From an uncultured Alphaproteobacteria bacterium (GTDB lineage Bacteria; Pseudomonadota; Alphaproteobacteria; Acetobacterales; Acetobacteraceae): 64,000 nt of DNA. Numbering within the stretch: position 1 is the first letter of the stretch; each line of letters opens with the position of its first letter. The stretch is taken from NCBI GenBank assembly GCA_963708585.1, contig CAVPSW010000004.1, positions 106,875 to 170,874 of the forward strand. The letters are read 5' to 3'. A program made the position numbers and the translations under genes. Below the pieces are notes generated by a model. That model was not told the origin of the DNA and did not search any database. It worked only from the letters and a program-made list of their open reading frames with translations. Below, in pieces: positions 16,572 to 62,186 of the stretch.

Positions 16572-16584
16572 TCGGCGCTGCGGG

Positions 16585-19272: not shown

Positions 19273-19400
19273 GCTCCGGCTCCAGTCACGTGCGTGAGGG
19301 TGCCACGGAGGAGTGAACGACTGGTTACCGCCGGGCGCGTCGCGTTGACACGCTCCGGCCGGCTTGCGCATGGTCGCGCCGCCTATCCGCGGGAACCAGA

Positions 19401-20241: not shown

Positions 20242-20242
20242 G

Positions 20243-21351
20243 GTGGACCCGCTGCCGCTCGCGCAGGCGCTGATCCGCTGCCGCTCGGTCACCCCGGCGG
20301 ACGACGGCGCGCAGGCCGTGCTGGCGCGCGCGCTGGAGCAGCTCGGCTTCACCGTCCATCACCTCCCGTTCGGCACCACGCCCAACCTGTTCGCGCGCGT
20401 CGGCGAGGACGGATTCCACCTCTGCTTTGCCGGCCACACGGATGTGGTGCCGCCGGGGGAGGGGGGCTGGACCGCCGACCCGTTCGGCGCGGAGGTGCGC
20501 GACGGCGTGCTGCTCGGCCGCGGCGCCTGCGACATGAAGGGCGGGGTGGCCGCCTTCGTCGCCGCCGTGGCGGAGCACTTGCCGTCGCTCCGCGGCTCCG
20601 TCTCCCTGCTGATCACCGGCGACGAGGAGGGCCCGGCGACCGACGGCACCGTCCGCGTGCTCGAATGGATGGCAGCGCACGGGCAGGTCCCGGACCTTTG
20701 CCTGGTCGGCGAGCCCACCAACCCGGACCGCCTCGGCGAGGTGATCAAGATCGGCCGTCGCGGCAGCCTCAACGCCGAGATCCGCGTCGTATGGCACGCA
20801 GGGCCACGTGGCCTACCCGCATCAGGCGGACAATCCGCTGCACCGGCTGGTGCGGGCGCTCGCGGCGCTGACCGCGGCGCCGCTCGACGCCGGCAGCTCG
20901 CTGGTTCGAGCCGAGCACGCTGCAGCTCACCAGCGCCGACGTCGGCAACACGGCCACCAACGTGATCCCCGCCGAAGCGCGGGCCCGGCTCAACATCCGC
21001 TTCAACGACCTCCATACCGGCGCCGGGCTGGAGGCATGGTTGCGGGCGACGCTGGCGCAGTATTGCCCGCGGTTCGACCTTCGCGTGGAGGTCAGCGGCG
21101 AGGCGTTCCTGACCGAGCCCGGCCCGCTCGTCGACCGGCTCCGCCGCGCGCTGGCCCATGCGACCGGGGTCGAGCCGCGTCTCGACACGGGCGGCGGCAC
21201 GTCCGACGCGCGGTTCATCGCCCGTTACTGCCCGGTGGCGGAGTTCGGCCTGGTCGGGACCACCATGCACAAGGTGGACGAGCAGGTCCCGGTGGACGAG
21301 CTGCGCCGCCTGTCGGAGGCCTATCGCGCCGTGCTGGCGGAGTTCGTGTGA
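20243..21351 (+). CDS. dapE: Succinyl-diaminopimelate desuccinylase (frame changes near 20790-20960)
   Basis: Motifs [25 protein letters not shown]. The middle part [17 protein letters not shown] is in ORF 20808... The C-terminal part is ORF 20962..21351. Confidence 0.9.
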
Positions 21352-29448: not shown

Positions 29449-29703
29449 CTACTTCGAGAGGCTCGGCGTTCCCACGCCGTTCACTTGGTTCGAGCTGGTC
29501 GCCCCGCCGGCGGTCGTGCTGCCGGTCGGGATCCCGCTGAACGGTGCGTCGTGGTCCGGCCCGGTCGAGCGACCAGCACGGTCCGCGGGCATGACGTTCT
29601 GCGCTGGGCCCGTGCTCGGCACCGGCGCGGGCGTCCAGCCTTCCTGGGCCGCGAGCGCGGAGGCGGCCATCAGGAGCGTGACGGCAAAGGCGATCGTTCG
29701 CAT
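29449..29703 (-). CDS. Small secreted hypothetical protein (84 aa)
   Basis: MRTIAFAVTLLMAASALAAQ signal peptide, then a Gly/Pro/Thr-rich mature part. Divergent from fliL. Confidence 0.4.
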   Translation of the reverse strand: MRTIAFAVTLLMAASALAAQEGWTPAPVPSTGPAQNVMPADRAGRSTGPDHDAPFSGIPTGSTTAGGATSSNQVNGVGTPSLSK

Positions 29704-29777
29704 GCGACCGCAACGTGGTTCAGCCGTAACCGGTTCCACGCCCGCATCGACAGCCCGCGGCCCTGTCTCGCCGCGCT

Positions 29778-29793
29778 TTAGCCTTCCGTTAAC
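29778..29793 (+). promoter_or_regulatory. Near-consensus CtrA-type box TTAG-N7-TTAAC upstream of fliL
   Basis: ttag ccttccg ttaac, read directly. It has one mismatch to TTAA-N7-TTAAC and ends 40 nt upstream of the fliL ATG (29833). Confidence 0.35.
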
Positions 29794-29832
29794 CTGTTCA
29801 TGCGAAAGCTCGGCCCTGTCAGGGGGCACAAA

Positions 29833-30327
29833 ATGAGCACGACGACGGCGGACGCTCCGGAAGCAAATGAGCCAAAGAAAAAGGGCGGCAAACGCAAGCT
29901 GTTCCTGATTCTGGGCCTCGTGGTCGTGCTGGGCGGAGCTGCGGCCGGCTGGTTCACCGGGCTGGTGCCGAAGCTGATCGGGGGCGGGCACGCGGCCGAG
30001 ACCGCGTCGGCGGCGGCGGCTGCACCCGTGTTCCTCGACCTGCCGGAGATCATCGCCAACCTCAACGCGGGTGCGCGCCGGGCCTCGTTCATCAAGCTTC
30101 AAGCCAAGCTCGAACTCGCCCGCAAGGAGGACATCCCGATCGTGCAGAACGAGATGCCCCGCGTGCTGGACCTGTTCCAGGGCTACCTGCGCGAGATGCG
30201 GCCGGAGGAGCTGCGCGGCACCGCCGGCACCTACCGCCTGCGGGAAGAACTCGTCGCCCGGACCAACATCGCCGCCGCACCGGCCAAGGTGCTGGACGTC
30301 CTGTTCGTCGAGTTGCTGGTCCAATGA
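29833..30327 (+). CDS. fliL: Flagellar basal-body-associated protein FliL
   Basis: MSTTTAD..., KK-rich segment, single TM (LFLILGLVVVLGGAAAGWF), then ...FLDLPEIIANL...ASFIKLQAKLEL... The stop overlaps the fliM ATG (ATGA). Confidence 0.85.
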   Translation: MSTTTADAPEANEPKKKGGKRKLFLILGLVVVLGGAAAGWFTGLVPKLIGGGHAAETASAAAAAPVFLDLPEIIANLNAGARRASFIKLQAKLELARKEDIPIVQNEMPRVLDLFQGYLREMRPEELRGTAGTYRLREELVARTNIAAAPAKVLDVLFVELLVQ

Positions 30328-31307
30328 GCGAAACCGACCGCATCCTCGACCAGGCGGAGATCGACAGCCTCCTCGGCCTGACCAGCGGCCCGGCTGCCGA
30401 TGAGATCCAGGGCGTCCAGCGCATCATCAGCTCCGGCCTGGTCTCGTTCGAGCGTCTGCCAATGCTCGAGATCGTGTTCGACCGGCTGGTCCGCATCATG
30501 TCGACCACGCTGCGCAACTTCACCAGCGACAACGTCGAGGTCGGGATCGACAACATCGTCTCGTTCCGCTTCGGCGACTACCTGAACAGCATCCCGCTGC
30601 CCGCCATGCTGGCCGTGTTCAAGGTCGAGGAGTGGGACAATTACGGACTGATGGTGATCGATTCCGCGCTCATCTACTCGATCGTCGACGTTCTGCTCGG
30701 CGGCCGGCGCGGCACGGCGGCGATGCGCATCGAGGGCCGGCCCTACACCACCATCGAGCGCCGGCTGGTCGAGCGGCTGATCGAGCTCGTGCTGAAGGAT
30801 CTCGCCGCCAGCTTCGACCCGATCTGCCGCGTGACGCTCAACTTCGAGCGGCTGGAGGTGAACCCTCGTTTCGCCGCCATCTCCCGGCAGTCGAACGCCG
30901 CCATCGTCGCCCGCCTGCGCGTGGACATGGAGGACCGCGGCGGGCGGCTCGAGCTCCTGCTGCCCTACGCCACGCTCGAGCCGGTCCGAGAGATGCTGCT
31001 CCAGCAGTTCATGGGCGAGCGCTTCGGCCGCGACAGCATCTGGGAGGCCCACCTCGCCGAGCAGCTTTGGCAGACGGAGATCGAGCTCGACGTGGTGCTG
31101 GATGAGCAGGTCATGTCGCTTGCGGACGTGATGGAGCTGCGGATCGGTAGCCAGATCGTGCTCGGGAACGGTCCCGGCGGCTCCGTCGCGCTGCGCTGCG
31201 GCGGCGTGCCGATGTTTGCCGGCCGGGTCGGCCGTCGCAAGGACCAGGTCGCCGTTCGGATCGAGGAAGTTCTGGGCCGCATGCAGGCCGCCGAGATGGG
31301 CAAGTAG
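30324..31307 (+). CDS. fliM: Flagellar motor switch protein FliM
   Basis: Intact 327 aa. N-terminal ILDQAEIDSLLG (CheY-P binding-type motif), then the middle and C-terminal SpoA-like domains. Confidence 0.95.
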   Translation: MSETDRILDQAEIDSLLGLTSGPAADEIQGVQRIISSGLVSFERLPMLEIVFDRLVRIMSTTLRNFTSDNVEVGIDNIVSFRFGDYLNSIPLPAMLAVFKVEEWDNYGLMVIDSALIYSIVDVLLGGRRGTAAMRIEGRPYTTIERRLVERLIELVLKDLAASFDPICRVTLNFERLEVNPRFAAISRQSNAAIVARLRVDMEDRGGRLELLLPYATLEPVREMLLQQFMGERFGRDSIWEAHLAEQLWQTEIELDVVLDEQVMSLADVMELRIGSQIVLGNGPGGSVALRCGGVPMFAGRVGRRKDQVAVRIEEVLGRMQAAEMGK

Positions 31308-31754: not shown

Positions 31755-32419
31755 AGATCACCTTGCGCCCACTTCCATTCGCCATCGCCGCGATGGCCCT
31801 GCTCGTGTCCGTGAAAACGGTAAACCTCGTCGAGGCGATCGACCTCGGCTCGCCGGCGCGCGCGGGCGAGCAGCACGCCGCCGCGCCGGCTGCTGCAAAA
31901 CCCGCTGCTGACCGGCCGCGCGCCCCCGAGCCGACCCAAGCGGCCGCTGCCCCCCCGGCTGAGCCGCCGATCAGCGACGCGGAGCGCGCGACGCTTCAGG
32001 ACCTGCGCGCGCGCCGGAAGGAGCTGGACGCGCGGGCCGCAGCGCTCGACGAGCGCGAAGCGATCCTTGCCGCCGCGGAGCAGCGGCTCTCCGACCGCGT
32101 CAAGGAACTTTCGGCGCTGCAAACCAAGCTCGAAGGCCTCGACAAGGCCCGTCACGAACGCGACGAGGCGAACTGGCGCGGGCTGGTCAAGACGTATGAA
32201 GCCATGCGCCCGCGCGACGCGGCCACGATCTTCAACGACCTCGACGGTCCCGTCCTCCTCCAGGTGCTCGATCGCATGAAGGAGGCGAAAGCCGCCCCGA
32301 TCCTGGCCGCGATGGCGCCCGAGCGCGCCCGCGCCGTGACCGCCCAACTCGCGCAGTATCGCGCCGAGGTCAGCGCCGCACCCCGGCTTGATCAGCCGGC
32401 CGGAGCGCAGAAGCCATGA
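31751..32419 (+). CDS. motE: MotE-family flagellar motility protein
   Basis: Intact. Signal/TM segment, coiled coil, and C-terminal ...MRPRDAATIFNDLDGPVLLQVLDRMKEAKAAPILAAMAPERARAVTAQLA (MgtE_N-like). Confidence 0.8.
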   Translation: MKITLRPLPFAIAAMALLVSVKTVNLVEAIDLGSPARAGEQHAAAPAAAKPAADRPRAPEPTQAAAAPPAEPPISDAERATLQDLRARRKELDARAAALDEREAILAAAEQRLSDRVKELSALQTKLEGLDKARHERDEANWRGLVKTYEAMRPRDAATIFNDLDGPVLLQVLDRMKEAKAAPILAAMAPERARAVTAQLAQYRAEVSAAPRLDQPAGAQKP

Positions 32420-35204
32420 GAGCCGTCGCCGCGATCTTGCTCGTTGCCGCTGCCCCGGCGTTCGCTGCCGCTGCCGCTGCCGCTGCCTCGGACGGACCGA
32501 GCTCTGGGCAACTAGTCCTGGACGTCCCTGTAACCGCGCACGTGTCCGTCACGCAGCACTCCAGCAAGGTCGAACTCAAAGTTCCCGCCGACACCAAGCT
32601 GAGCGCGCCGGACCCGCTGCCCCGCAACGTCGTCGCATTCGAAAGCTCCTCCGCGGGGCGCGGCGACCGTGACCGTGGTGCCCGGCTCGCACGTAAAGTG
32701 GAAGAAGCACGGCACGGTGCTCGTGCTCAATTTCCTCGATCCGCCCGCCCGGCCCGGCGCCGAGCCGGCCCGGGTCGAGACGGCACTGCCCCCAGCTCAA
32801 CCGCAAACGCCCGCCCCGGCTCCGCCCGCCTCCGCACCTCTCCCGCCGGCTCCGGCACCTGTTCCGGCCCCAGCCGCGGTCGCGCTGCCCCCGCCCCCGC
32901 CCGCGCCGGTGCCCGCCGCCGCGCCTCAAACCGCCCCCGCCCCGGCGCCTGCGCCAGTCACGACCGAGCAGCTTTCCCCGCCGCCGGCCGTTCCCGATCA
33001 GCCTGCCCCGACCGCTTCGCCCGCGCCGGCACCGCTTCGGCTTACGGCCGGCCCGGACGTAGGCGCCGCCGCGTTCCGGCGCGGGGACCTGGGCGTGGTC
33101 GTGTTCGATGACGACGTCGCGCCCGCAGCGTCGGATGCCGACAAGCTCGGCCCCGCCACGATCCAGCATCAAGGCCGAGCGACGATCGTGACCCTGCCGC
33201 TTGGCCGCCGACCAGTCTCTCGCGCTCGGCCGCGACGCGACCGGCTGGACGGTCCAGGCCGGGCCGGCGGCGGGCGCGCCGGCCGTGCAGTCCGCCGTGC
33301 CGGAGGGGATCGCCTTCGAGTTCGACCGCCCCGGTCGCGCCATGACGGCCCAGGACCCGGTCACCAAGCAGCTCCTGCTGATCGGCACGTCTCGTCTCCC
33401 CGGCGGGGAGCACGCCCGGGTTGCCATCGGTCGGTCTGCGCCCGGCTACGTCCTGCTCCCCACGTTCGTGGGCCTCGTGCTCGAACTGAGCTCGGACGCC
33501 GTCGATCTGCGGGCATCCTCCACCGGATTCGCGCTGGACGTTCCCGACCGCAACGATCCCAACAAGCTTGCCGACGCCCCGATCCGCGACAATCAGTTCG
33601 GCATTCCCAATGCGCCCGCTGCCGTGCTGGCCGAGCAGTTGCGGTCGGAGATGACCGAGGCCGCCAACACGCCGCCGCGCATGCGCGGGCCCGGTGCGAG
33701 TTGCCGCGGCCAAGACAATGCTCGCGATCGGAATGGCGGCGGAGGCGCAGGCGCTGCTGACCCTCGCAGCCAACGACGATCCCGGCGGTCGCCAACGATG
33801 CGGGGACCGCCGCCCTCTCCGGCATCTCTGCCGTGCTTGCCGGCCGTCCCGCCGAGGCTGCGGGCCTCGACAACCCCGCACTGCCGGACAACGACGAGAC
33901 CGCGCTCTGGCGCGGCCTGCGGGACGCGGCGCCAGGGCAAGCCTGCTCCTGCTCTCGCCAAAGCCGCGCCGCTCATCCCCGCTTACCCCGAGGCGATCCG
34001 TCGCGTGATCACGCCGCCGATCATGGAAGCGGCGGTCCTTGCCGGCATCCCGGTTCCGGCCGGGAGCTTGGAAGACCCGTCTCTCGCCTTCGCCCGGGCG
34101 CTGCAGAAGCAAAAATCCGGCGACACTGCGGGAGCGCTGGCCGCCTTCGACGCTCTCGCTGACGGCCGCGACGAGCGCGATTCCGTCCGCGCCTCCATCG
34201 CTGCGGCCGAGCTGCGGCTCGCCAACGGCAAGATCACCCCGGCCGCTGCCGCCGATCAGCTCGAACGGCAAACCGTTCGCTGGCGCGGTGACGAGCAGGA
34301 GCTCGCCTTGCGGCTCCGGGTTGCGGAGCTGCGCACCAAGGCGGGTCAGTGGCGGCCGGCGCTGGACTCCCTGCGCGAAACCGAGACGCGTGTTCCCCGC
34401 CGCCAAGGCGCGTGTGGCGCCGCTGAAGGCGGGCGTGTTCACCGCGCTGCTCGCGGCCGGCGACCAGGCCGTCAGCCCGCTCGAACTCGTCACCATCGCG
34501 CGCGAGTTCGCCGATTGCGTTCCGGCCGGGGCGGATGGTGAGCGCCTCGCCGGGCTTCTCGCCGACAAGCTCGTCGCGCTCGACCTGCCGTCCCGCGCCA
34601 TTCCCGTCTTGCACGACCTGGTCGACAAAGCGGCGTCGCCCTCCGCAAAGACCGAGTTCGCGCTCCGCCTTGCTCAGCTGCAGCTCGACGCCGGCGACCC
34701 GGCCAAGGCCCAAGCCGCGTTGGATGCCGTCGACGAGGCCTCGATGACGCCCGCGCGGGCCGAGCAGTCGGTCCCTCCTATCTGCCCGCATCGCCGCCGG
34801 TCGCGGCGATCTCGCGCGTGCGGCGGAGTTGCTGGCTCGCGTCGACACGCCTGCAGCGGCGGAGATGCGCGCCGGCTATCTTGCCAAGGCCGGCGACTGG
34901 CGTGGCAGCCTGGGCGCGATCGACAGCGTCGTCGCGCGAACCGTCCCCGAAACAGGCGAGCTGACCGCGCCACAGCAGGACCTGATCGCTTCGCGAGGCC
35001 ACCGCGGCGGTTCATGCCGGCGACGCCGACGCGCTGCATAGGCTGAAGCGGTTCGAAGCGCGGATGGCCGCTCCGCGGATCGATCTGTTCCGGGTGCTGA
35101 CCGCGACAGCCGTCGAGAGCTCTGACGATCTGCCTCGATCTGCAAGGGAACTCGCCATGACGCGCTTGTTGCCGGATCGTCTCGACGCGTTAAAGCTTCC
35201 CTGA
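32416..35204 (+). CDS. Large secreted protein: beta-rich N-domain, Pro/Ala-rich linker, TPR-like helical C-region (about 930 aa; many frame changes)
   Basis: The ATG at 32416 overlaps the motE stop. Signal peptide MRAVAAILLVAAAPAFAAAAAAAAS. The pieces lie in ORFs 32416.., 32669.., 33201.., 33694.., 34039... The last readable segment ...LKRFEARMAAPRIDLFRVL...LDALKLP* stops at 35204. Confidence 0.5.
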
Positions 35205-35364
35205 ACTTCGTCAGAGCGCCGGGCGAGGCGCCTTCTTCGCAATTTGTCCCCCGCCGCTCCTATTATCACTTGCCATACCCCCCCGCCGGCCCTATGTCCC
35301 GGCCTCTCTTGGCCCAAGGGGGCGATCCCGCCCAACAGGCTGTCTACTGGTTTGGGGGTACGTG

Positions 35365-35833
35365 ATGAACGCACTTGCTCAACTGGGGATGGTCTCGGAA
35401 TTTCCGAGCGAAAACCAGACGACGATTGCATCGGTTCCGAGCACTGTGGCCGAGGAGCGTAAAGACTACTTCGTCGAGAAGGATGGGCAGCGGTTCGCTG
35501 GCACGCATCTTCTCGTCGATCTTTGGGGTGCCGACAACCTGGACGATCCAGAGCTGATCGACGTTGCGCTTGCGCCAAGCGGCCACTCGCGCGGGCGCGA
35601 CGATCCTGCACAGCCACTTCCACCACTTCACGCCCAATGGCGGCGTGTCGGGCGTGGTGGTTCTGGCGGAGAGCCACATCTCGATCCATACGTGGCCCGA
35701 GCGTCGCTTCGCCGCGATCGACATCTTCATGTGCGGCGCCTGCAATCCGTACGATGCGGTCCCGGTGCTGCGGCAGACCTTCCACCCGGACCGGGTGGAT
35801 CTCAGCGAAGAGCGTCGCGGCCGCCTGCCCTGA
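35365..35833 (+). CDS. speD: S-adenosylmethionine decarboxylase proenzyme, small bacterial type (one frame change near 35570)
   Basis: ...[13 protein letters not shown]..., then ORF 35564..35833 with the self-processing/active region [14 protein letters not shown]. Confidence 0.85.
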
Positions 35834-36694
35834 GCGGGTGGTTCAACGAAGCGCTGTACCCCGATTGGGGGCAGCGCTTCCGTTCCGTGCGCGAACTCGT
35901 GCATGCACAGACGAAGTATCAGGACGTCCTGATCTTCGAAAGCGCTAGTCATGGGCGCGTGCTCGTGCTCGACGGCGCCGTCCAGATCACCGAAGCCGAT
36001 GAGTTCGTCTATCAGGAGATGCTGGCGCACGTGCCGATCCTCGCGCACGGCTCCGCGCGCCGCGTGCTGATCATCGGCGCCGGCGACGGTGGCGTGCTTC
36101 GCCGCGTCCTGCAGCATCGGACGATCGAGGAGGCCGTCATGGTCGAGATCGACGGCGAGGTGATCCGGCTCGTGCGCGAGCACATGCCCAGCATCGCGGG
36201 CGACGCCTGGAATGACCCGAGGGCGCGAGGTCATCGTCGGCGACGGGCTCGAATACCTCGCCAAGTCGCCGGACGGAACGTTCGACGTCATCATCGTCGA
36301 CAGCACGGACCCGGTCGGCGTCGGTGAGACGTTGTTCACCGAGGCGTTCTACGCCGATTGCGCGCGAGCGCTGACCCCGTCCGGCATCGTCGTCAACCAA
36401 GCGGGCGTCCCGTTCATGCAGGGCGAAGAACTCGCGGAGACGACCCGGCGCCGCGCCGCCGCGTTCCCGCACGTCTCGGCCTACGTCGCGGCCGTTCCCA
36501 CCTATGTCGGCGGGTTCATGGCGCTCGGCTTCGCCGCGAAGGCGCCCGGACTGGACGCTATCGAGCCGACCGAGCTTGCCCGGCGTGCGCCGAAGCGGCG
36601 GGAATCCTCGGCAAGCACGCATTACTGGACGCCCGACGTGCACGCGGCCGCATTCAAGCTGCCGCCCTACATCGCCGTCCTGCTTCGGCCCTGA
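35830..36694 (+). CDS. speE: Spermidine synthase (one frame change near 36215; start approximate)
   Basis: ...[15 protein letters not shown]...[22 protein letters not shown]...IIGAGDGG, then ORF 36212..36694 with [11 protein letters not shown]. Confidence 0.85.
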
Positions 36695-36695
36695 T

Positions 36696-38042
36696 CTACT
36701 CGGCCGCGGCGCGGTCCCGTTCGCGCCAAGCCGGCGTGGCGCGTCCGATGCCCCGATATTCGAACCCGACCTCCGCGAACGCTGCCGGCTCGAACACGTT
36801 GCGCAGGTCCATGATCAGCCGCCCGCGCATGGCGTCGCGCAGCCGGGACGGAGAGAGCGCCCGGAACTCGTTCCACTCGGTGACCACGACCAGCACGTCC
36901 GCACCGGACGCCGCGTCGTAGGCGTCACTGCAGAACTGCACAGACCCCGGCAGGATCGCCCGCGCCTGCGGCATGCCGACCGGGTCGAAGGCGCGGACAA
37001 CGGCGCCCTCCTCGGCAAGGCGGCATATGATCGGGATGCTCGGCGCGTCCCGCATGTCGTCCGTCTCCGGCTTGAACGTCAGCCCGAGCACCGCGATCAC
37101 CTTCCCATGCACGGAGCCGCCGCACGCCTGCATGATGCGCGCCGCCATGCGCGACTTCCGCGCGTCGTTGACCGCGACCGTGGCCTCGACCAGGCGAGAC
37201 GGAGCGCCCCAGTCCTGGGCGATCCGCATCAGCGCCAGCGTGTCCTTCGGGAAACAGCTGCCGCCGAATCCCGGCCCGGGATGAAGGAACTTGCGCCCGA
37301 TCCGGCCGTCCAGCCCGATCCCGCGCGCCACGTCATGCACATCGGCGCCGACGCGCTCGCACAGGTCGGCGATCTCGTTGATGAACGTGACCTTCATGGC
37401 CAGGAACGAGTTCGCGGCGTATTTCGTGAGCTCCGCCGCTTCCAGGCTGGTGAACAGGATCGGGGCCTCGATCAGGTAAAGCGGGCGATAAAGGCGTCGC
37501 AGGACCTCCCGGGCCCGCTCGCTCTCGGCGCCGATGACGACCCGGTCCGGCCGCATGAAGTCGCCGATCGCGCTGCCCTCGCGGAGGAACTCGGGATTGC
37601 TGGCGACGTCGAATTCGAGGTCGGGGCGGACCCGGCGCATGATCTCGGCGATGCGCCGCCCGGTCCCGACCGGCACCGTCGACTTCGTCACGACGACGGC
37701 ATAGCCGGTGAGCGCCCGCGCGACTTGCTCGGCTGCTGCGTTGACGTAGCTCACGTCGGCGTGCCCATCGCCGCGCCGGGTCGGCGTGCCGACGGCGATG
37801 AACACGGCTTCGACTCCGGCGACTGCGCTCGCGAGATCGGCACCGAAGCTGAGCCGGCCTGCCGCGACGTTTTCCGCCACCAGCCGGTCGAGGCCGGGCT
37901 CATAGATGGGAATGCGGCCTTGGTTCAGTGCCGCGAGCTTCGACGGGTCGGTCTCGACCACTGCAACCTCGACTCCGAGGTCGGCGAAGCAGGCGCCTGA
38001 CACCAGGCCCACATACCCGCCCCCGATCATCGCGATGCGCAA
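36696..38042 (-). CDS. ugd: UDP-glucose 6-dehydrogenase
   Basis: Intact 448 aa. MIGGGYVGLVSG, catalytic GFGGSCFPKD. Confidence 0.9.
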   Translation of the reverse strand: MRIAMIGGGYVGLVSGACFADLGVEVAVVETDPSKLAALNQGRIPIYEPGLDRLVAENVAAGRLSFGADLASAVAGVEAVFIAVGTPTRRGDGHADVSYVNAAAEQVARALTGYAVVVTKSTVPVGTGRRIAEIMRRVRPDLEFDVASNPEFLREGSAIGDFMRPDRVVIGAESERAREVLRRLYRPLYLIEAPILFTSLEAAELTKYAANSFLAMKVTFINEIADLCERVGADVHDVARGIGLDGRIGRKFLHPGPGFGGSCFPKDTLALMRIAQDWGAPSRLVEATVAVNDARKSRMAARIMQACGGSVHGKVIAVLGLTFKPETDDMRDAPSIPIICRLAEEGAVVRAFDPVGMPQARAILPGSVQFCSDAYDAASGADVLVVVTEWNEFRALSPSRLRDAMRGRLIMDLRNVFEPAAFAEVGFEYRGIGRATPAWRERDRAAAE

Positions 38043-38119
38043 ATCCAGCTCCCCTCAACGACCCGCGCAATCCAACACATCATAGCTGAAAGGGCCAGCG
38101 GGTGCCCGTTCGCTCGCGA

Positions 38120-38552
38120 TCATGGCAGGTCCGTGGCCCGCCGGCGTGGCCGATCGTCCAGCTCGCGTTGCTCCGCGCGCTCCTGCTTGCGGCGCAGGGC
38201 CTCTTTCTGTTCCCGTTGCAGCGTTTCCACGCTTTCGAGCGCGGTCCGGCACGCGGTCAGCTCGGCGCGCGCGCGGGCGGTCTCGGCCTGCCTGGATGCG
38301 AGCTGCCGTTGCGCCTCCTCCAGCTTGACGGCGGGCGCCGGGCAGCCAGGCGCCAAACGCCTCAACGACCGCGTCCGATCCGGCCGGGTCCGACGCCGCC
38401 TGCGTCTCCTCCGCAATGGTCCGTTCGATCATTTGGGCCGTCTGCTCGTCCTGCGCTCTCCGCGGCGAGGGCAGCTCGCGAGGCGACGCTGCGCCTCGTC
38501 GCACGCGAGTCGGCGGACTTTGATCAACGTCGCAGAGCGGATCACGCGCCAT
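38120..38552 (-). CDS. fliJ: Flagellar export chaperone FliJ-like coiled-coil protein (frame-broken)
   Basis: The ATG at 38552 overlaps the fliI stop. The C-terminal part is ORF 38120..38416 (...KLEEAQRQLASRQAETARARAELTACRTALESVETLQREQKEALRRKQERAEQRELDD...). Confidence 0.55.
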
Positions 38553-39922
38553 GATCGGCCGCCACAATCTCGGCCGAGGCGGGCAAACGGCCTCGTCCAG
38601 CGTGCTATGTTCGCCTTTTGGCTGGCTGATCAATCGTTCGATCAACGGCGCGATGCGAAGCGCTCGGTCGGCGGCCGGGTCGCTGCCGGGCTGATACGCG
38701 CCGAGGCGCACCAAGTCGCTCAGCTCGGCCTGAAGCGCGAGCGCCTCCCGGGCTCGCCGGACCGATTGCCGTTCAGCATCGGTCAGACAACCCGGCACGG
38801 TTCGCGACAGGGAGCGCAGCACGTCGACCGCCGGATAGCGCCCGGACTCGCCGATGCGGCGGTCGAGGATCACGTGTCCGTCGAGAATGCCGCGGACGGC
38901 GTCGGCAACGGGCTCGTTGTGGTCGTCGCCCTCGACCAGGACGGTGAAAATGGCGGTGATGTGCCCGCCGGTCTCTTCCGGACCCGGGCCAGCCCGCTCC
39001 AGCAGCCGCGGCAGTTCGGCAAACACGCTTGGAGGATAGCCGCGAGTCGCTGGCGGCTCGCCAGCCGCAAGGCCGATCTCGCGCAGCGCCAGGCAGAACC
39101 GGGTCACGCTGTCCATCAGCAGCAGGACGGACTTTCCCTGGTCGCGGAAATGCTCTGCCGACCGTCATCGCCGCATAGGCCGCCTCACGCCGCATCAGAG
39201 GGGGCTGGTCGGAGGTCGCCACGACAACGACGGAACGGGCCAGGCCGTCCGGGCCGAGGTCGTCCTCAAGGAACTCGCGCAACTCGCGCCCGCGCTCGCC
39301 GACCAGGGCGAGGACAATGACGTCGCAATCCGCCTGCTGCGCGAGCATGGACATCAGCGTCGATTTTCCGACGCCCGAGCCGGCGAACAAGCCCAGCCGT
39401 TGGCCGCTCCGGCAGGTCGCAAACAGGTCAAGCGCGCGCACGCCCAGGCCGATCCGCGGGCCAAGCCGGGCTCGGCGGGCCGCCGAGGGAGGGTCGGCGC
39501 GGACGCGTCGCGGCGGCGCCGCTCCCAAGCGCACCCAATCCGTCCAGCGGGGCCCCGAGCGGGTCGACGATCCGGCCCAGCCATCGCTCGCTCACGGAGA
39601 GGGTCGATCCGGGTTGCACTGCCATCCGCGCTGAAGCCGGCAATCGCCGCGGCGCCAGCCCCGAGCCCGGCCAAGTCCCCGAAGGCAAGGACGCGGGCCC
39701 GTTCGCCGCGAAAGGCGACAACCTCTGCGACCACCTCCGGCCCCGCCCTGGGCAGGAGGCGCGACGCGATCGCCAATGGCCAACAGGCCGGTCAGACCTT
39801 CCAGCTCTGCCGCGAGGCCCGAGACGGATGTAACCCGGCCGATGCACGCCGTTTCCGCCGCGCGCCGGAGCAGCTCGGGCGCCGTTCCGGAGGCGTTCTA
39901 CAACTGAGAGTTGCTGCACCAA
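38542..39922 (-). CDS. fliI: Flagellum-specific ATPase FliI (many frame changes; start approximate)
   Basis: Walker A GSGVGKSTLMSML (ORF 38773..39534). The MDSVTRF...REIGLAAGEPPATRGYPPSVF segment is in ORF 38055..39116. N-terminal pieces are in ORFs 39354..39776 and 39428..40030. Confidence 0.85.
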
Positions 39923-39935
39923 GATCGAGCGTCGT

Positions 39936-39990
39936 CCTTTTCCGCTCAGGACGGTAAGCGGAAAAGGCAAAGAGACGGTTAAGTCTCTTT
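39936..39990. repeat. Two adjacent perfect inverted repeats (11-bp and 8-bp stems) in the fliI leader / divergent promoter region
   Basis: ccttttccgct-caggacggta-agcggaaaagg (39936-39967) and aaagagac-ggttaa-gtctcttt (39969-39990), read directly. They lie in a locally AT-rich gap. Confidence 0.8.
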
Positions 39991-40079
39991 CTTGGGACAC
40001 ATCTGAGTGCGTTTTCGCGTGGACATACACACGTCATAGGTTGCATAATGCCTTAACAGTTCGCGATAAGGGGCAGCCG

Positions 40080-40831
40080 ATGCGAGTGCTGATGGTCGAA
40101 GATGACGCGCTCTCCAATAGGGGGCTGGTGCAGGCGCTTCGGGATAGCGGAGCGGTCGTCGAGCGGCTCGACAGCGGCGAAGAGGCGCTGGAGATGCTTC
40201 GGCACTACGAGTTCGACATTGTCATGGTCGAGCTGACCCTGTCGGACATCGAAGGCTACGAAGTCGTCCGCCGGATGCGGGCGGCGCGGGTGGACACTCC
40301 GGTATTGATGTTGTCGGCGCTGGTCCGCCCGCAGGCCAGGGTGAAGGCGTTTGCGATCGGTGCGGACGATTTCATCACCAAGCCGTATGACGTCTCCGAA
40401 TGCGTCGCGCGGATGCAGGCGGTCGTGCGGCGGAGCAAGGGGTTCAGCCAGTCGGTGCTGTCGGTCGGAGACGTCGAACTCAACCTGGACAGCCGGTCGG
40501 TGTCGGTCGCCGGGCCGTCCGGTCCATCTGACTGGCAAGGAATACGCGATCCTCGAGCTGCTCGTGATGCGCAAGGGCGATGGTGCTGACCAAGGAGGTG
40601 TTCCTGAACCACCTCTACGGCGGCATGGATGAACCGGAGGTGAAGATCATCGACGTCTTCATCTGCAAGCTGCGCAAGAAGCTGGCCGAGGCAGGCGCTC
40701 GCGACGTGATCGGCACCGTTTGGGGCCGCGGCTACACGGTGCGCGACCCGGCGCCGGTGCCGGCGAGCGCGTCCCCGTTCCGGGCAGAGCCAGTCCTTGC
40801 GGCGCGTGAAATGAGCCGGGTCGCAGCCTAG
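40080..40831 (+). CDS. CtrA-family (OmpR-type) response regulator with Glu at the phospho-acceptor position (two frame changes at 40510-40585)
   Basis: Receiver: MRVLMVEDD...[18 protein letters not shown]...MLSA...TKPY. DNA-binding domain: [18 protein letters not shown]...[34 protein letters not shown]...TVWGRGY, nearly identical in motif to CtrA. Codon GAG at 40230-40232 aligns with CtrA D51. Confidence 0.85.
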
Positions 40832-41268
40832 CGCTGCTTACCGTCGGGTTGCGAGGCTCGGTTCAGGCCAGGCCGAATTTCGGTCGACGTTCCCGGTGCC
40901 CGCAACAAGGCTTGGTTCGAGGACCCGGGTCCGCGTAGTGCGGGGCTGAGCGCACCAGGAGGGGCAAACCGCGAAAGGCCATGGTCGCGCTCCGGACGGA
41001 GCGGTGCCAACGGGCAGGGTGGGAGACGCGGTTAACCGCTGCAGACCATTCCCGTGGCCTTCCAAGGTCCAGCCAGTGTGCGATCACCCCTGTCCTGCCA
41101 GGAGCGCCGCAAACGACAGAGCAGTCGGCGGGCCATGATCCGACGTTCCAAGCCGCGGTGCGCCGGCGCTGACGGCGCCCGAAGCCGCGCTGAACGGAAA
41201 CCGCCGTGCTTGCCAGCGGGCGCGGCGGGCGGCACTGTTTTGCGGTGCAATCTGTGGCGAGGCGGCCG
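40832..41268 (+). other. 437-bp non-coding GC-rich gap upstream of the ABC binding-protein gene; possible structured leader or sRNA, class unassigned
   Basis: No protein-like ORF in any frame. There are several short GC helices, e.g. gagcgcacc...ggt(c)gcgctc at 40969-40992. Confidence 0.25.
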
Positions 41269-42785
41269 ATGCGCCATCTAGTTTTGGCAACACTCTGCCT
41301 CGCTACGTGGGCCGGGGCGGCGACGGCGCAGCCGTTTCGGATCGCGCTGCGCGAGGACCCGGACAGCCTCGACCCGACCCTGGCGCGGACCTACGTCAGC
41401 CGGATCGTCTTCGCCGGGCTGTGCGACAAGCTGTTCGACATCAACGAGAAGCTCGAGATCGTGCCGCAGCTCGCGACCGGCTACGAATGGGCCGACCCGA
41501 AGACGCTGGTCATCAAGCTGCGCGACCGGCGTGCTGTTCCAGGACGGCACCAAGATGGACGCGGATGCGGTCAAGTATTCGCTCGAGCGGCACCTCAACA
41601 TGCCGGGCAGCTTCCGCCGCTCCGAGATCAACGCGATGGACCACGTCGAGGTGGTCGATCCGCTGACGGTCAAGGTCGTGCTGAAGGAGCCGTCCTCGCC
41701 GTTCCTGGCGCAGCTCGACGGACCGCGCCGGCATGATCGTCTCGCCGAAGGCGGCGGAGGCGGAGGGAAAGGATTTCCGGCTGAAGCCGGTCTGCGCCGG
41801 ACCGTTCAGCTTCGTCGAGCGCGTGCCGCAGGACCACATCACGCTCGAGCGCTTCCCGCAGTACTGGGACGCGGCGAACATCCATCTCGACCGGCGTGAC
41901 CTATCAGATCATCCCCGACAGCTCGATCCGGCTCGCCAACCTGCAGGCCGGGCAGCACCGAACTGGTCGAATACATCGTGCCGACCGATGTGGACGCGGT
42001 GAAGAAGGACCCGCAAGCTGAAGCTCGCGATGATGGACGCGCTCGGGTTCCAGACCATCGAGTTCAACGTCGGCGAACGGGCCGCGGGCGAACACGCCGA
42101 TCGGCCAGGACGCGCGCGTGCGGCAGGCGTTCGAGCGCTCGATCGACCGCGAGGCGCTGCTGCAGGTCGTCTATAACGGCCTGTACGCGCCGGCGGCGCA
42201 GGGCATCCCGCCGGCGCAGCCCGATGCACGTCGCCGAGCTCAAGCCGCAGCCGCGGGACGTGGACGCGGCCAAGGCGCTGCTGCAGCAGGCGGGGGTGAA
42301 GACGCCGGTGGTGGTGCACCTGACGGTGCCGAACAACCCGGACCTGCGCCAGGTCGGCGAGATCATCCAGTCGATGGCCGCCGAGGCCGGGTTCGACGTG
42401 CAGATCACCGCCTCGGAATACGCCTCGGCGCTGGACGCGGCCACGCGCGGCGACTTCGAGGCGTTCCTGACGGCGTGGTCCGGCCGCGTCGACCCGGACG
42501 GCAACCTTTATCAGTTCCTGCACACCGGCGGCGCGCTGAACGACGCCGAAATACTCGCAATCCCGACGTGGACCAGGCGCTCGACGGGGCGCGCGCGGTC
42601 GCCGACACGGCGCAGCGGCGCGGCGCTCTACGCGCAAGATGTATGCGCAGGAGGCAAAGGACCTGCCGATCATGTATCTCTGGTATCCAGAAGAGCATCG
42701 TCGGCATGCCGGCGAACGTGCAGGGCTTCACAGCAGGTGCCGGACGGGATGATCCGGCTGCAGGGCGTGAGCCTGGCGCAAGTAG
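41269..42785 (+). CDS. ABC transporter substrate-binding protein, family 5 (peptide/nickel type; many frame changes; 3' end approximate)
   Basis: Signal peptide MRHLVLATLCLATWAGAATAQ, then FRIALREDPDSLDPTLARTYVSR... Later pieces read ...VLFQDGTKMDADAVKYSLERH..., ...FLTAWSGRVDPDGNLYQFLHTGG... Confidence 0.8.
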
Positions 42786-42793
42786 CTCGCGCG

Positions 42794-43747
42794 ATGCGCG
42801 GCCATCTCGGCGACGCGGCTGCTGCAGGTCATCCCGACCATCCTGCTGGTCAGCATCCTCGTGTTCGCCCTGCAGCAGCTCATGCCCGGCGACCCGGCCG
42901 ACGGTGCTCGCCGGCGAGGAGCGCGGCGACCCGGCGGTGCTGGCGCAGATCCGCGCCGAGCTGTGGCTCGACCGGCCGCTGCCGATGCAATACCTGCACT
43001 GGATCGGGCGGCGTGCTGCACGGCGACCTCGGCTTCTCCTGGCGCATCCGCGAGCCGGTGCTGCAGCTGATCCTGACCAAGCTGCCGGTGACGCTGCAGC
43101 TCGCGGCGATGGCGTTCGTCATCGCGCTCTGCATCGGCGTGCCGGCGGGGGTGCTGTCGGCGGTGTACCGCAACACGGTCTGGGACTACCTGGTCAACCT
43201 GGTCGGGCTCGCCGGGCTCAGCACGCCCAATTTCTGGCTCGGGATCATGCTGATCCTGCTGGTCTCGGTGCAGCTCGGCTGGCTGCCGCCCTCCGGCTAC
43301 GTGCCGCTGCACGGAGGACTGGCGGCAGTCGCTGGCGACCACGATCATGCCGGCCTTCGTGCTCGGCAACGCGATCGCCGCGATCCTGATGCGCCATACC
43401 CGCAGCGCCATGCTGACCGCGCTCGACCAGGATTACGTGCGCACCGCGCGGGCCAAGGGCTTGCGCGGAGACGCGTGGTCGTCGTGCGGCACGCGTTCCG
43501 CAACGCGCTGGTGCCGGTGGTGACGCTGGGCGCGCTCGAGCTGGGCACGCTGCTGTCCGGCGCCGTGCTGACCGAGCAGGTGTTCAGCATCCCCGGCTTC
43601 GGCAAGCTGGTCGTCGACGCGGTGTTCAACCGCGACTACCCGGTGGTGCAGGGCGTCGTGCTGGTGACGGCCTGCCTGTTCATCCTGCTGAACCTGCTGG
43701 CCGACGTGCTCTACGTGCTGATCAACCCGCGGCTGCGCGCGGCATGA
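42794..43747 (+). CDS. ABC transporter permease (DppB/OppB-like; frame-broken)
   Basis: ...RLLQVIPTILLVSILVFALQQLMPGDPA..., then ...DYVRTARAKGL...VFSIPGFGKLVVDAVFNRDYPVVQGVVLV...INPRLRAA*. Confidence 0.85.
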   Translation: MRGHLGDAAAAGHPDHPAGQHPRVRPAAAHARRPGRRCSPARSAATRRCWRRSAPSCGSTGRCRCNTCTGSGGVLHGDLGFSWRIREPVLQLILTKLPVTLQLAAMAFVIALCIGVPAGVLSAVYRNTVWDYLVNLVGLAGLSTPNFWLGIMLILLVSVQLGWLPPSGYVPLHGGLAAVAGDHDHAGLRARQRDRRDPDAPYPQRHADRARPGLRAHRAGQGLARRRVVVVRHAFRNALVPVVTLGALELGTLLSGAVLTEQVFSIPGFGKLVVDAVFNRDYPVVQGVVLVTACLFILLNLLADVLYVLINPRLRAA

Positions 43748-44612
43748 GCGCAGCGGCGGCGCTGCATCGCGCAGCCCGGCCGCGCTGGCGCTGCGCCGGT
43801 TCGCGCGGGCGGCCGGCGGCGGTGGCCGGGCTGGTGGTGATCACGGTGTTCGTGCTGGTGGCCGCGCTGGCGCCGCTGGTCGCGCCGTACAACCCGGACG
43901 CGACGAGCTGGACGCTGATCCGCAAGGCGCCGTCGGCCGCTGCACTGGATGGGCACGGACGAGAACGGGCGCGACGTGTTCTCGCGCGTGGTGTTCGGGC
44001 GCGCGGGCGTCGCTGCTGGCGGGCGTGGTCTCGGTGCTGATCGCGGCCGGGATCGGCGTGCCGCTCGGGCTGCTGGCCGGGTTCGCGGGCGGCAAGGTGG
44101 ACGCGGTGATCGGGCGGCTGGTGGACGCGATGCTGGCCTGCCCGTTCCTGATCCTGGCGATCGCGCTGGCGGCGTTCCTCGGCCCGGCGCTGACCAACGC
44201 GATGATCGCGATCGGCGTCACCGCGGCGCCGGTGTTCGTGCGGGTGGCGCGCGGCGCGACGATGGACGCGGCGACCAACGAGTATGTCGAGGCGGCGCGC
44301 GCGCTCGGCAACCCGCCGTGGCGGGTGGCGGTGCGCCACGTGCTGCCGAACATCGTGCCGCCGGTGCTGGTGCAGGCGACGCTGGCGATCGCGGCGGCGA
44401 TCATCGCCGAGGCGAGCCTCTCCTTCCTCGGCCTCGGCCAGCAGCCGCCGGCGCCGAGCTGGGGCAGCATGCTGAACTCGGCGCAGCGGTTCCTGACCCA
44501 GGCGCCGTGGCTGGCGGTGTTCCCGGGCATCGCGATCTTCCTCGCGGTGCTGTCGTTCAACCTGGTGGGCGACGGGCTGCGGGACGCGCTCGGACCCAGC
44601 GGACGGCGCTGA
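43744..44612 (+). CDS. ABC transporter permease (DppC/OppC-like; frame-broken)
   Basis: ...LAPLVAPYNPD..., HWMGTDENGRDVFSRVVFG (ORF 43949..), then ORF 44025..44612 with ...EYVEAARALG...EASLSFLGLG... Confidence 0.85.
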
Positions 44613-45596
44613 TGCGCGGTGTGCGGTAGCGTCTGGACGATTGGCAGGGCGTCGCGCGGGAGAGCGCGGACTGGTCGAAGCTGCGAGGCGCAGGCGGAGG
44701 TGGTGATCCTGCCGAAGCCGTTCGCGGACGAGGACGCGGCGGCCGCGGCGCTCGCAGGACTTCGAGATCCTGATGCTGATGCGCGAGCGCACCCCGTTCC
44801 CGGCGCAGCCTGATCGCGCGGCTGCCGAAGCTGCAAGATGATCGCGCTGACCGGCAGCCGCTCGCCCTCGCTCGACGTCGCCGCCTGCACGCGAGCGCGG
44901 CGTGGTGGTCAGCAACACCGGCGGCACGGCGTCGACGACGGGACGGCGGAGCTGGCGCTCGGGCTGATGCTGGCCGCGGCGCGGCGGATCCCGGCCGGCG
45001 ACGCGGCGATCCGGGCCGGGCGGTTCCAGGAGGGCGTGGGCGTCGGCCCGGTGCTGGAGGGCAAGACGCTGGGGATCATCGGGCTGGGCCGGATCGGCGC
45101 CTGGGTCGCGCGCTATGGGCGGGCGCTGGACATGACGGTGCTGGCCTGGAGCCGGAGCCTGACGCGCGACGCGGCCGAGGCGGGCGGGGCGGAGCTGGCG
45201 GCGAGCAAGGACGCGCTGCTGGCGGCATCGGACGTGGTGAGCCTGCACGTGCCGCTGTCGCCGGCGTCGCGCGGGCTGATCGGGGCGGCGGAGATCGCGC
45301 GGATGAAGCCCGGCGCGATCCTGGTCAACACGTCGCGGGCCGGGCTGGTGGATCAGGCGGCGCTGCTGGCGGCGCTGCGGGACGGCCGGATCATGCGCCG
45401 GCGCTGGACGTCTACGAGCAGGAGCCGCTGCCGCCGGACGACCCGATCCGCACGGCGCCGAACACGGTGCTGACGCCGCATGTCGGCTACGGCTCGGTCG
45501 ACACGTTCCGGCAGTTCTATCGCGGAGAGCATCGAGAACATGCTGGCGTTCATCCTGGGCGCAGCCGATCCGGGTGATGAACCCGGAGGCTGCTGA
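44612..45596 (+). CDS. D-isomer-specific 2-hydroxyacid dehydrogenase family protein (heavily frame-broken; one in-frame stop near the start; ends approximate)
   Basis: Pieces read ...LDDWQGVARESADWSKL..., ...FEILMLMRERTPFPA..., GKTLGIIGLGRIGAWVARYG (NAD motif), ...VVSLHVPL..., ...LDVYEQEPLPPDDPIRTAPNTVLTPHVGY. Confidence 0.65.
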
Positions 45597-48652: not shown

Positions 48653-50105
48653 TCAGAGCGCGCGGACCGTTCCGCCGTCACGCGGGAGGGAGGCGGCAGG
48701 CTGGCCGCCGCTGAGCTGCATGGGCCGGCGCGAGGTGGCGCGGAGCAGCGCGGCGACGAAGGAGCGGCCCCAGCCGAGCGCGGAGGTGTCCTTGATCGCG
48801 TCCCAGGCCTCGCGCCAGCGGGATTGGCGCTCGGCGAGGCTCATGGTCAGCGCCTGCTCGAGCGCGTCGGCCATCGCGTCGGCGTCGTAGGGATTGACCA
48901 GCAGGGCCGAGCCGAGCTGCTGCGCCGCGCCGGCGAAGCGGGACAGGACCAGCACGCCGGGGTCCTGCGGGTCCTGCGCGGCGATGTATTCCTTGGCGAC
49001 CAGGTTCATGCCGTCGCGCAGCGGCGTGACCAGGCCGACCCGGGCCTCGCGCATGTAGCCGGCGATGGTGTTGCGCGCGCCGGCGCGGGCGATCAGGCGC
49101 AGCGGCGTCCAGTCCGGCTCGGCGAAGGCGCTGTTGAGGTTGCCGGCCTCGCGCTCGACGGCCTGGCGCAGGTCGCGGTAGGCGGCGACGTCCTGGCGCG
49201 ATTCGGCCGCGATCTGCAGCAGCGTGACCCGGCGATGCCAGTGCGGCGCGCGTCTCCAGCAGGCGGCGGTAGCCGGCGACGCGCTGCATCAGGCCCTTGG
49301 TCGGGTCGAGCCGGTCGACGCCGAGCATGAGCAACTGCTGGCGAGAGACTGCGCCGGAGCCGCTCGGACGGAGGAGGCGAGCCAGGAATCCTCGGCGATC
49401 GCGGCGAATTCCTGCGGCTCGATCTCGACCGGGAAGGCGCCGAGGCGGATGCGGCGCCCGCCGAACAGCAGCCAGTTGTTCGGGCCGCGCTCGGCGCCGG
49501 CCATGCGGACGGCGGCCTCGGCGAAGTTGCCGGCGTCGTTCTCGGTCTGGAAGCCGAGCAGGTCGGCGGCCAGCAGGTCGCGCACCAGCGCCGCGCGCCT
49601 CCGGCACCTTGACCAGCAGGTCCGAGCCGGGGAACGGGATGTGCAGGAAGAAGCCGATCGGCGCCTCGACGCCTCGCGCCCGCAGCAGCGCCGGCATCGC
49701 CATCAGGTGGTAGTCATGCACCCAGATCAGGTCGCTCGGGCCGAAGCAGCGGCACCAGCTGATCGGCGAAGCGCTCGTTGACCTCGCGATAGGCCTGCGC
49801 GTTGCGGCGGTCGATAGGTCATCAGCTCCGGCATCGAGTGCAGCAGCGGCCAGAGCGTGCCGTTGGAGAACTCGTTGTAGTAGCGGTCGTGCTGCTCGGC
49901 GGTGAGGTCGACCGTCGCGAAGCGGACGGCGCCGTCCTCGACCATGCGCGTGCTCGTCGCGTCGGAGATGCGGCCGCTCCAGCCGAACCACAGGCCCGCC
50001 GCGCTGCTGCATCAGCGCTTCCAGCGCCACCGCCAGACCGCCGGCCTGCGCGCCCGCTGCCGACGGCGCGGGCACCCGGTTGCTGACCACGACGAGGCGG
50101 TTCAT
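48653..50105 (-). CDS. otsA: Alpha,alpha-trehalose-phosphate synthase (UDP-forming) (many frame changes)
   Basis: Starts [12 protein letters not shown]. Pieces read ...[15 protein letters not shown]..., ...IWVHDYHLM..., and C-terminal ORF 48653..49054 with [14 protein letters not shown]. Confidence 0.85.
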
Positions 50106-50139
50106 CGGACCTCCAGGAGCGCGACAGGCAAGCGCCGCT

Positions 50140-58811: not shown

Positions 58812-58815
<4 letters not shown>
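56648..58815 (-). CDS. glgB: 1,4-alpha-glucan branching enzyme (many frame changes)
   Basis: ATG at 58815. Pieces read ...[13 protein letters not shown]..., [20 protein letters not shown], ...[12 protein letters not shown]..., ...[13 protein letters not shown]..., ...[12 protein letters not shown]... The tail ...[14 protein letters not shown] overlaps the treZ ATG. Confidence 0.9.

Positions 58816-62183
<3,368 letters not shown>

Positions 62184-62186
<3 letters not shown>

Follow-up and report, generated by a model that had tools for sequence, protein, structure and literature searches.

A 64,000-nucleotide (nt) stretch of DNA from an uncultured member of the Acetobacteraceae (contig CAVPSW010000004.1; this whole stretch is referred to below as the window) contains an orthologue of ctrA in which the phospho-acceptor aspartate, Asp51, has been replaced by glutamate. 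CtrA is a textbook response regulator whose phosphorylation times the cell cycle and flagellar biogenesis, and D51E is its classic bypass allele. In this lineage the Asp51→Glu change appears to be maintained by selection. The reading favoured here, with a probability of about 0.6, is that the protein acts independently of phosphorylation and is controlled through its abundance. Phosphorylation control of CtrA has probably been abandoned in this lineage.

The gene begins with the ATG at 40080, its product starts with MRVLMVEDD, and it lies in sequence of high G+C content (about 72% across the window). Two Pfam domains are recognised in the product: the PF00072 receiver (residues 3-112, E = 5e-24) and the PF00486 OmpR-type output domain (residues 145-219, E = 4e-20). 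The features of the gene are as follows.

40080..40831, plus strand: ctrA orthologue, 249 amino acids (aa) once repaired, with the receiver at residues 3-112 and the winged-helix domain at 145-219
40098..40106, plus strand: codons 7-9, Glu-Asp-Asp, acidic metal-binding pocket, kept
40230..40232, plus strand: codon 51, GAG: Glu51, aligned with the phospho-acceptor Asp
40242..40244, plus strand: codon 55, Ser; this D+4 site is hypervariable in the Glu clade, whereas 94% of canonical CtrAs have Pro
40314..40316, plus strand: codon 79, Ser, the conserved Ser/Thr switch residue, kept
40371..40382, plus strand: codons 98-101, Phe-Ile-Thr-Lys, with the aromatic switch F98 and the pocket lysine K101, kept
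40512..40514, plus strand: GGG run with one surplus G, first +1 frameshift
40579, plus strand: surplus G, second +1 frameshift
40823..40828, plus strand: C-terminal Ala-Ala of the product, which ends in ...SRVAA
40829-40831, plus strand: TAG stop codon

HMMER alignments to solved OmpR-family regulators place Glu51, ungapped, on the acceptor Asp of DrrD 1kgs (FDVVILDIML) and of BasR/PmrA (YSLIVLDLGL). In an alignment of 20 CtrA-type proteins the same column holds Asp51 in the canonical Acetobacteraceae CtrAs, and Glu51 also aligns with Asp51 of Caulobacter CtrA. No other residue falls at the acceptor position. The output domain is nearly invariant across the 20 proteins and its motifs are the same as in canonical CtrAs. 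An earlier note on this DNA (the original prediction) had read GAG at 40230-40232 as a Glu at the D51 position, in a receiver with a retained acidic pocket, Ser/Thr and Lys followed by a CtrA-like output domain. All of this was borne out by the alignments: E7-D8-D9, S79 and K101 are present, and so is F98.

Conservation of Glu51 was assessed in a search of 5.8 billion proteins, of which the best 120 CtrA-like matches were listed, and residue statistics were taken from a 199-sequence alignment. Among the matches listed, the nearest homologues (79-91% identity, the top ones 90-91% identical to the window protein) come from independent NCBI, ENA, JGI and Logan assemblies and have Glu51 in 41/41 cases; the residue is therefore conserved in close relatives. 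The next tier of homologues (78% identity or less) has Asp in this column. The Glu-type set (n=41) is monophyletic in 99/100 neighbour-joining bootstraps. Five genomes encode Glu51 with GAG and another, L004, with GAA. A read error at codon 51 was considered and ruled out: the comparison finds Glu across the whole clade, with synonymous codon variation. Synonymous divergence (dS) between Glu-type genomes amounts to 0.8-2 substitutions per site, which is near saturation. At position 55 the same clade shows M, A, V, S, L and further residues. Because Glu51 is invariant at near-saturated dS and through a GAG/GAA swap, while position 55 varies, it appears to be held by selection.

As deposited, the gene contains two +1 frameshifts, which the original prediction had already noticed as indels. 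Homology leaves the frame after SVSVAG and continues in the +1 frame, and later in the +2 frame up to the stop. Removal of the second surplus G restores RKGMVLTKE as in all homologues, and when both are deleted the resulting 249-aa protein is collinear with all homologues. If these frameshifts were real, the gene would be a pseudogene in this genome, a receiver-only fragment in a decaying flagellar and CtrA system. The two lie within 70 nt of each other and do not compensate one another, the adjoining fliI and fliJ are frameshifted as well, and fliI has been deleted in related lineages. The frame breaks are, however, not confined to the flagellar genes. The proteins of the closest syntenic contig (L001; 75.6% DNA identity over 10.8 kilobases, kb) were compared with the window, and at least nine further breaks were found in six genes between 33 and 40 kb. 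Three of them fall in a single hypothetical gene; the other affected genes are a second hypothetical gene, fliI, fliJ, speD and speE, the last two being housekeeping genes. Most of the junctions are at GGG or CCC runs, and a codon-position scan detected additional breaks in the downstream ABC-transporter genes (binding protein, permease). Assembly indel errors in high-GC sequence typically leave such a pattern. The frames of fliM, the DUF6468 gene and its neighbour, and ugd are intact. Beyond the frameshifts ctrA is still 87% identical to L001, with every CtrA motif kept, and the relatives have intact genes. Since at least nine breaks affect six neighbouring genes, including speD and speE, comparison with L001 indicates that the two ctrA frameshifts are most likely assembly indels and not gene decay; a true pseudogene is considered highly unlikely.

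The stretch dense in +/-1 frameshifts extends from 33000 to 45500, and most genes before 30 kb read through. It looks like a poorly polished long-read or low-coverage assembly.

Judged by sequence, tree and synteny, the gene is the positional orthologue of ctrA and no additional flagellar regulator. It matches NF045991, the NCBIfam CtrA equivalog model, over its full length with 334.8 bits (cut-off 350), and the next family, PmrA, reaches 167. Canonical Acetobacteraceae CtrAs score 375-382 bits with this model, and the whole derived lineage to which the gene belongs scores 332-339: 332 for the Asp-bearing sister, 334-339 for the other Glu-type proteins and 336 for a type with Gly at position 51. 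A genome scan with one genome per GTDB species listed 80 loci, all of them from Acetobacteraceae or Rhodospirillales. In 72 of the 80, nearly all with Asp51, ctrA lies about 250 bp from fliI and divergent to it; two of the eight loci without this arrangement are interrupted by a contig end. The order ugd-fliJ-fliI <> ctrA is also found in the Glu-type loci L001-L004 and L086, and the Glu-type gene nests inside the Acetobacteraceae CtrA tree. Orthology thus follows from the shared slot, the nesting in the tree and a CtrA model score twice that of any other family.

The original prediction had correctly placed the gene divergently beside fliI-fliJ, but had taken it for a CtrA paralogue comparable to FtcR. 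In that case it would be an extra orphan flagellar regulator, and a canonical Asp51 ctrA would be located elsewhere in the genome. The flagellar context, the lack of a kinase nearby and the score slightly under the CtrA equivalog cut-off are all compatible with a paralogue, and the search reached only part of the genome. Against this, the gene occupies the family-wide ctrA slot and is nested among the Acetobacteraceae CtrAs. The likeness to FtcR is not supported either, as the gene belongs to the CtrA clade and occupies the ctrA slot, a placement made without comparing the FtcR, Rem and LafR sequences themselves. Two further points count less heavily: among the best 120 CtrA-like matches no second CtrA-like protein shares the chromosome-sized contig of the Glu-type protein in three complete genomes (3,582,437, 4,376,578 and 4,223,623 bp), and there is a single locus per Glu-type genome among the 80 listed in the scan. 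An extra paralogue is therefore given very little probability.

In one genome (L090), whose FliM is 86% identical to that of the window, transposases (DDE_3, Mu-type) and a LexA-like fragment are found after speE at 16516-20987, where ugd-fliJ-fliI-ctrA would be expected.

The receiver domain of the Glu-type proteins is well preserved. In the Glu clade the pocket residues D8 and D9 are found in 97% and 88% of sequences respectively, the remainder having Glu, and S79, F98 and K101 are each present in 100%. The ratio of nonsynonymous to synonymous substitution rates (dN/dS) between Glu-type genomes is 0.03-0.11 for the receiver and 0.02-0.09 for the DNA-binding domain, which means strong purifying selection. 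Mean pairwise identity within the clade is 87% in the receiver and 91% in the DNA-binding domain. Several residues are fixed specifically in this clade: L11, V17 and D22 in helix alpha-1, which is the docking surface for kinases and phosphotransferases, as well as M49, E58, L78, I93 and V115. The Ala-Ala terminus, in Caulobacter CtrA part of the ClpXP degradation signal, is found in 37 of the 41 Glu-clade proteins and in most canonical CtrAs too. Taken together, the substitution pattern indicates that the Glu-type receiver is a functional domain and no relic.

Replacement of the acceptor also happened outside the main Glu clade. The protein P0068 has Glu51 and an intact fliI adjoins its gene, yet its nearest relatives are Asp-type (82% identity) and it never falls in the main Glu clade in the bootstraps. 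Three proteins (P0049, P0051 and P0054) form a Gly51 group in 100/100 bootstraps. The Glu and Gly types are all located within one derived sub-lineage of 61 sequences. In its Asp-bearing members the Pro at D+4 is already gone (T, S, R or M are found there) and the T+1 position has Ala instead of Gly. The tree therefore suggests that the acceptor was replaced at least three times (main Glu clade, Glu in P0068, Gly trio), in a lineage with a previously altered active-site loop.

In L084 (9432-10747), the one Gly51 locus examined, and the Asp51 sister locus L006 (9490-10753) fliI is deleted, and only a fliJ remnant is left between ugd and ctrA. These two lineages may have lost the flagellum yet kept ctrA.

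A CtrA-type box in front of fliL, claimed in the original prediction, is present in the window and lies before the following operon.

29778..29794, plus strand: CtrA-type box TTAG-N7-TTAACC, starting about 55 nt before the fliL ATG
29833..31307, plus strand: fliL-fliM operon, likely target of the box (Pfam FliL, FliM and FliMN_C; tblastn)

Allowing up to one mismatch, TTAGCCTTCCGTTAAC (29778-29793) is the sole match to TTAA-N7-TTAA in the 64-kb window, where 0.13 would be expected. TTAG-N7-TTAACC is found at an equal distance from fliL in L087, L088, L089 and L090, that is, in five of five Glu-type genomes with the window included. The distance is preserved regardless of the gene upstream of fliL, which differs between genomes (an EamA transporter in L087-L090). 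L092, a more distant genome with a CtrA outside the Glu-type matches, has TTAC-N7-TTAACC about 61 nt upstream of fliL. CtrA-activated promoters are described as having TTAA sites, both full and half, close to the -35 region (PMC6180460), and the CtrA site of R. capsulatus as GTAAC-N6-TTAAC (PMC6363796). In the window, a small open reading frame (ORF) upstream of fliL (29600-29705, minus strand) has a signal-peptide-like start, MRTIAFAVTLLMAAS.

The intergenic region between ctrA and fliI contains other conserved elements.

39826..40079, between divergent genes: fliI-ctrA intergenic region, with conserved blocks GTTAAG (39978-39983), TGGACAnACACACG and AGGTTGCA

All three blocks are conserved in five Glu-type genomes and are candidate promoter or operator elements. 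An autoregulatory CtrA box at the ctrA promoter was also considered and rejected, as there is only the conserved GTTAA half-site and the other blocks. No consistent CtrA box was found in the fliI-ctrA intergenic regions of Asp-type loci.

The original prediction stated that there is no histidine kinase nearby, and none was detected: Pfam finds no HisKA, HATPase_c or HPt domains at 16.5-47.5 kb, and a motif scan finds no histidine kinase H, N and G2 boxes in any six-frame ORF of the 64-kb window. A hidden Markov model (HMM) built from Caulobacter and Brucella ChpT detects no ChpT-like ORF in the window or in the approximately 100 kb of Glu-type loci. The same model finds chpT, the gene of this histidine phosphotransferase, in Falsiroseomonas, Dankookia, Paeniroseomonas, Siccirubricoccus and relatives, where it lies 6-7 kb downstream of an Asp-type ctrA. 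Searched against the database, these Roseomonas-group ORFs matched PF10090 ChpT proteins.

L078:16342-16953, minus strand: chpT
L058:16181-16816, minus strand: chpT
L031:16609-17256, minus strand: chpT
L026:12515-13249, minus strand: chpT

Among the best 120 of 406 ChpT profile matches there are Roseomonas-group proteins only, and none is on a Glu-type chromosome. Since chpT is found near Asp-type ctrA, the relay is present in canonical members of the family.

The favoured reading can be expressed as a mechanism. The carboxylate of Glu, one methylene longer than that of Asp, would be unable to accept a phosphoryl group from a histidine phosphotransferase, so that the CckA-ChpT relay would no longer switch CtrA. 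The near-intact receiver would serve constitutively in folding, dimerisation and partner binding, by analogy with the engineered CtrA(D51E) of Caulobacter and Rhodobacter. The unchanged winged-helix domain would bind boxes of the TTAA-N7-TTAAC type, such as the one before fliL-fliM, and drive early flagellar genes. Control of activity would have moved to the abundance of CtrA, set by proteolysis via the kept C-terminal Ala-Ala and by transcription from the conserved promoter region that ctrA and fliI share. Phosphate mimicry by Glu51 is plausible, by analogy, because D51E is an active kinase-independent allele and Glu is selected here.

Several points weigh against this reading. Gly51 is found in a related clade, and Gly is no phosphate mimic. 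Loss of the D+4 Pro preceded the Asp-to-Glu change, since the Asp-bearing sister group already lacks it. Because of these two observations, independence from phosphorylation may have come first. Asp-to-Glu by itself is not activating in several regulators, CheY, PhoB and Spo0A among them (PMC4395418). The putative fliL box has a mismatched first half-site (TTAG) when set against the consensus, and no full CtrA box with at most one mismatch is present in the fliI-ctrA intergenic region of any Glu-type locus. The absence of CckA-ChpT, and of a second, Asp-bearing ctrA, from Glu-type genomes is a prediction of the reading. Finally, the deposited ctrA with its two frameshifts would encode only a 169-aa receiver fragment. 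The natural phosphomimetic of the original prediction is consequently retained in one half: the acceptor is naturally Glu, but the case for mimicry is weakened by the Gly51 relatives, the earlier loss of the D+4 Pro and the frequent insufficiency of Asp-to-Glu changes.

The main alternative reverses the order of events: phosphorylation independence or loss of the relay came first, the acceptor then drifted to Glu or Gly, and the protein acts like unphosphorylated CtrA. Relaxed constraint of this kind would account for the loss of the D+4 Pro in both the Glu clade and the Asp-bearing sister group, for the three or more independent acceptor replacements and for the position of the whole derived lineage, Asp members included, under the CtrA cut-off. 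It also agrees with the finding that Asp-to-Glu is frequently insufficient for activation (PMC4395418), and with the activity of unphosphorylated CtrA at some promoters (PMC6363796). Unphosphorylated CtrA has a regulon of its own in Rhodobacter capsulatus. Drift does not fit well, however, with Glu in 41/41 proteins at saturated dS and with synonymous change, while neighbouring relaxed sites vary. Retention of D8, D9, S79 and K101 would likewise be unexpected in a dead site. Clade-wide invariance despite synonymous codon change argues that Glu, or some acidic side chain, is selected, and relaxed constraint is on balance an unlikely explanation.

Phosphorylation-independent action of a selected Glu-type CtrA can also be seen as one part of a wider change, which is put forward tentatively and with some doubt: the whole of this uncultured Acetobacteraceae lineage would have uncoupled CtrA from the phosphorelay, with at least three acceptor replacements and with Glu as a built-in 'on' state in the main clade. 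If this is true, cckA and chpT should be gone or repurposed in Glu-type genomes, and CtrA should be governed only by transcription and ClpXP proteolysis. The Glu-type protein would then be the natural counterpart of the laboratory D51E allele. The living series from Asp with Pro55, through Asp without Pro55, to Glu or Gly would represent the dismantling of an essential two-component switch.

The flagellar genes next to ctrA are the following.

38480..39825, minus strand: fliI, flagellar export ATPase (tblastn with L001 FliI; Pfam on the neighbouring genes in L001 and L086); one or more frameshifts near 39133-39158
38120..38480, minus strand: fliJ (PF02050 on the L086 counterpart), with a frameshift near 38325-38356

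The fliL-fliM genes are followed by DUF6468 and MotE-like genes up to about 32.4 kb (Pfam DUF6468; tblastn). Polyamine and UDP-glucose dehydrogenase genes are located between the fliLM block (29.8-32.4 kb) and fliJ-fliI (38.1-39.8 kb). After the MotE-like gene there is a large gene (32400-35200, plus strand), whose L086 counterpart has 910 aa and no Pfam match and which is split in L001. The copy in the window is heavily frameshifted, with an odd codon-position G+C at 32.7-33.4 kb (first and second codon positions about equal, GC1 ~ GC2). The large gene accompanies fliLM in Glu-type genomes and is possibly part of the flagellum. Further away, at 16588-19236 (minus strand), a DUF2336 protein is encoded beside a GGDEF diguanylate cyclase whose N-terminal sensory region is long. 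This pair, about 21 kb from ctrA, is a possible cyclic di-GMP input. The end of the window (48700-64000, minus strand) contains, by eye, a trehalose/alpha-glucan-like cluster (otsA, treY, malQ, treZ, glgB, maltokinase/treS, glgE).

A clade in which Glu51 is fixed amounts to a natural experiment on whether Glu can replace aspartyl-phosphate in CtrA, on which parts of the receiver are needed after the loss of phosphorylation, and on the later fate of CckA, ChpT and the proteolysis machinery. For a comparison series there are Asp-bearing sisters, as well as nearby relatives in which Glu or Gly arose independently. Annotation pipelines name the Glu-type proteins 'CtrA' or 'response regulator', and their probable inability to be phosphorylated goes unflagged. 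The Glu51 CtrA is a solid observation of moderate surprise to specialists, and it is directly testable.

Aspartate-less OmpR-type regulators and a patchy CtrA relay in the family are both known. No literature report of a natural Glu51 CtrA, or of any aspartate-less CtrA orthologue, was found. Members of the relay are missing to a varying degree in Rhodospirillales of the Acetobacteraceae type (PMC2877005), and cckA, chpT and divL are present in only 27-36% of Rhodospirillales genomes, compared with 72-82% for ctrA (PMC8116508). The Glu51 clade fits these reports of a patchy relay in Rhodospirillales and Acetobacteraceae and sharpens them.

The Glu-type protein has the same two-domain architecture as canonical CtrA, both that of Caulobacter and those of Falsiroseomonas, Siccirubricoccus and Rhodopila. 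Identity is 63-72% with the canonical Acetobacteraceae CtrAs and 54% with Caulobacter CtrA. The DNA-binding motifs, the slot beside fliI-fliJ, the Ala-Ala end and a CtrA-type box before a flagellar operon are common to both. The Glu-type protein differs in Glu51, the lost D+4 Pro, Ala for Gly at T+1, the alpha-1 surface (L11/V17/D22) and a score just below the NCBI equivalog cut-off. Roseomonas-group genomes have chpT at a distance of 6-7 kb from ctrA, whereas none was seen near the Glu-type ctrA in the loci searched.

CtrA(D51E), engineered in Caulobacter crescentus and Rhodobacter capsulatus, has the identical substitution at the same residue. In Caulobacter D51E is reported to supply the essential activity but not to raise DNA binding, which would make the allele only a partial mimic even there. 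It is used as an active or phosphomimetic, kinase-independent ctrA allele (PMC5189948, PMC6363796). The engineered proteins are laboratory alleles in hosts which have the relay, whereas the Glu-type is natural, fixed in its clade and accompanied by other changes in the receiver.

FtcR of Brucella and LafR of Bradyrhizobium are flagellar master regulators of the OmpR type; their genes lie in flagellar clusters that contain no partner kinase, and they act on early flagellar genes. Rem of Sinorhizobium is also an OmpR-type flagellar regulator (PMC6180460). FtcR, Rem and LafR form a separate family which coexists with CtrA, whereas the present gene is CtrA by sequence, tree and synteny.

In terms of the missing acceptor there is a parallel with the aspartate-less receivers (ALRs), also called pseudo-receivers, such as HP1043 and ChxR of Chlamydia, the latter with Glu at the acceptor position. 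These are OmpR-type as well, and the Glu-type CtrA is one of them in the sense that its receiver domain is still recognisable although the acceptor Asp is missing. Glu is the replacement seen most often in ALRs (26%), and ALRs account for about 2% of REC-OmpR architectures (PMC4395418). Most ALRs have lost other pocket residues, and the second acidic position is acidic in just 29% of them, whereas the Glu-type CtrA keeps the whole pocket. Compared with ALRs, it is a recent derivative of a well-studied and normally phosphorylated master regulator whose Asp-bearing sisters are still extant.

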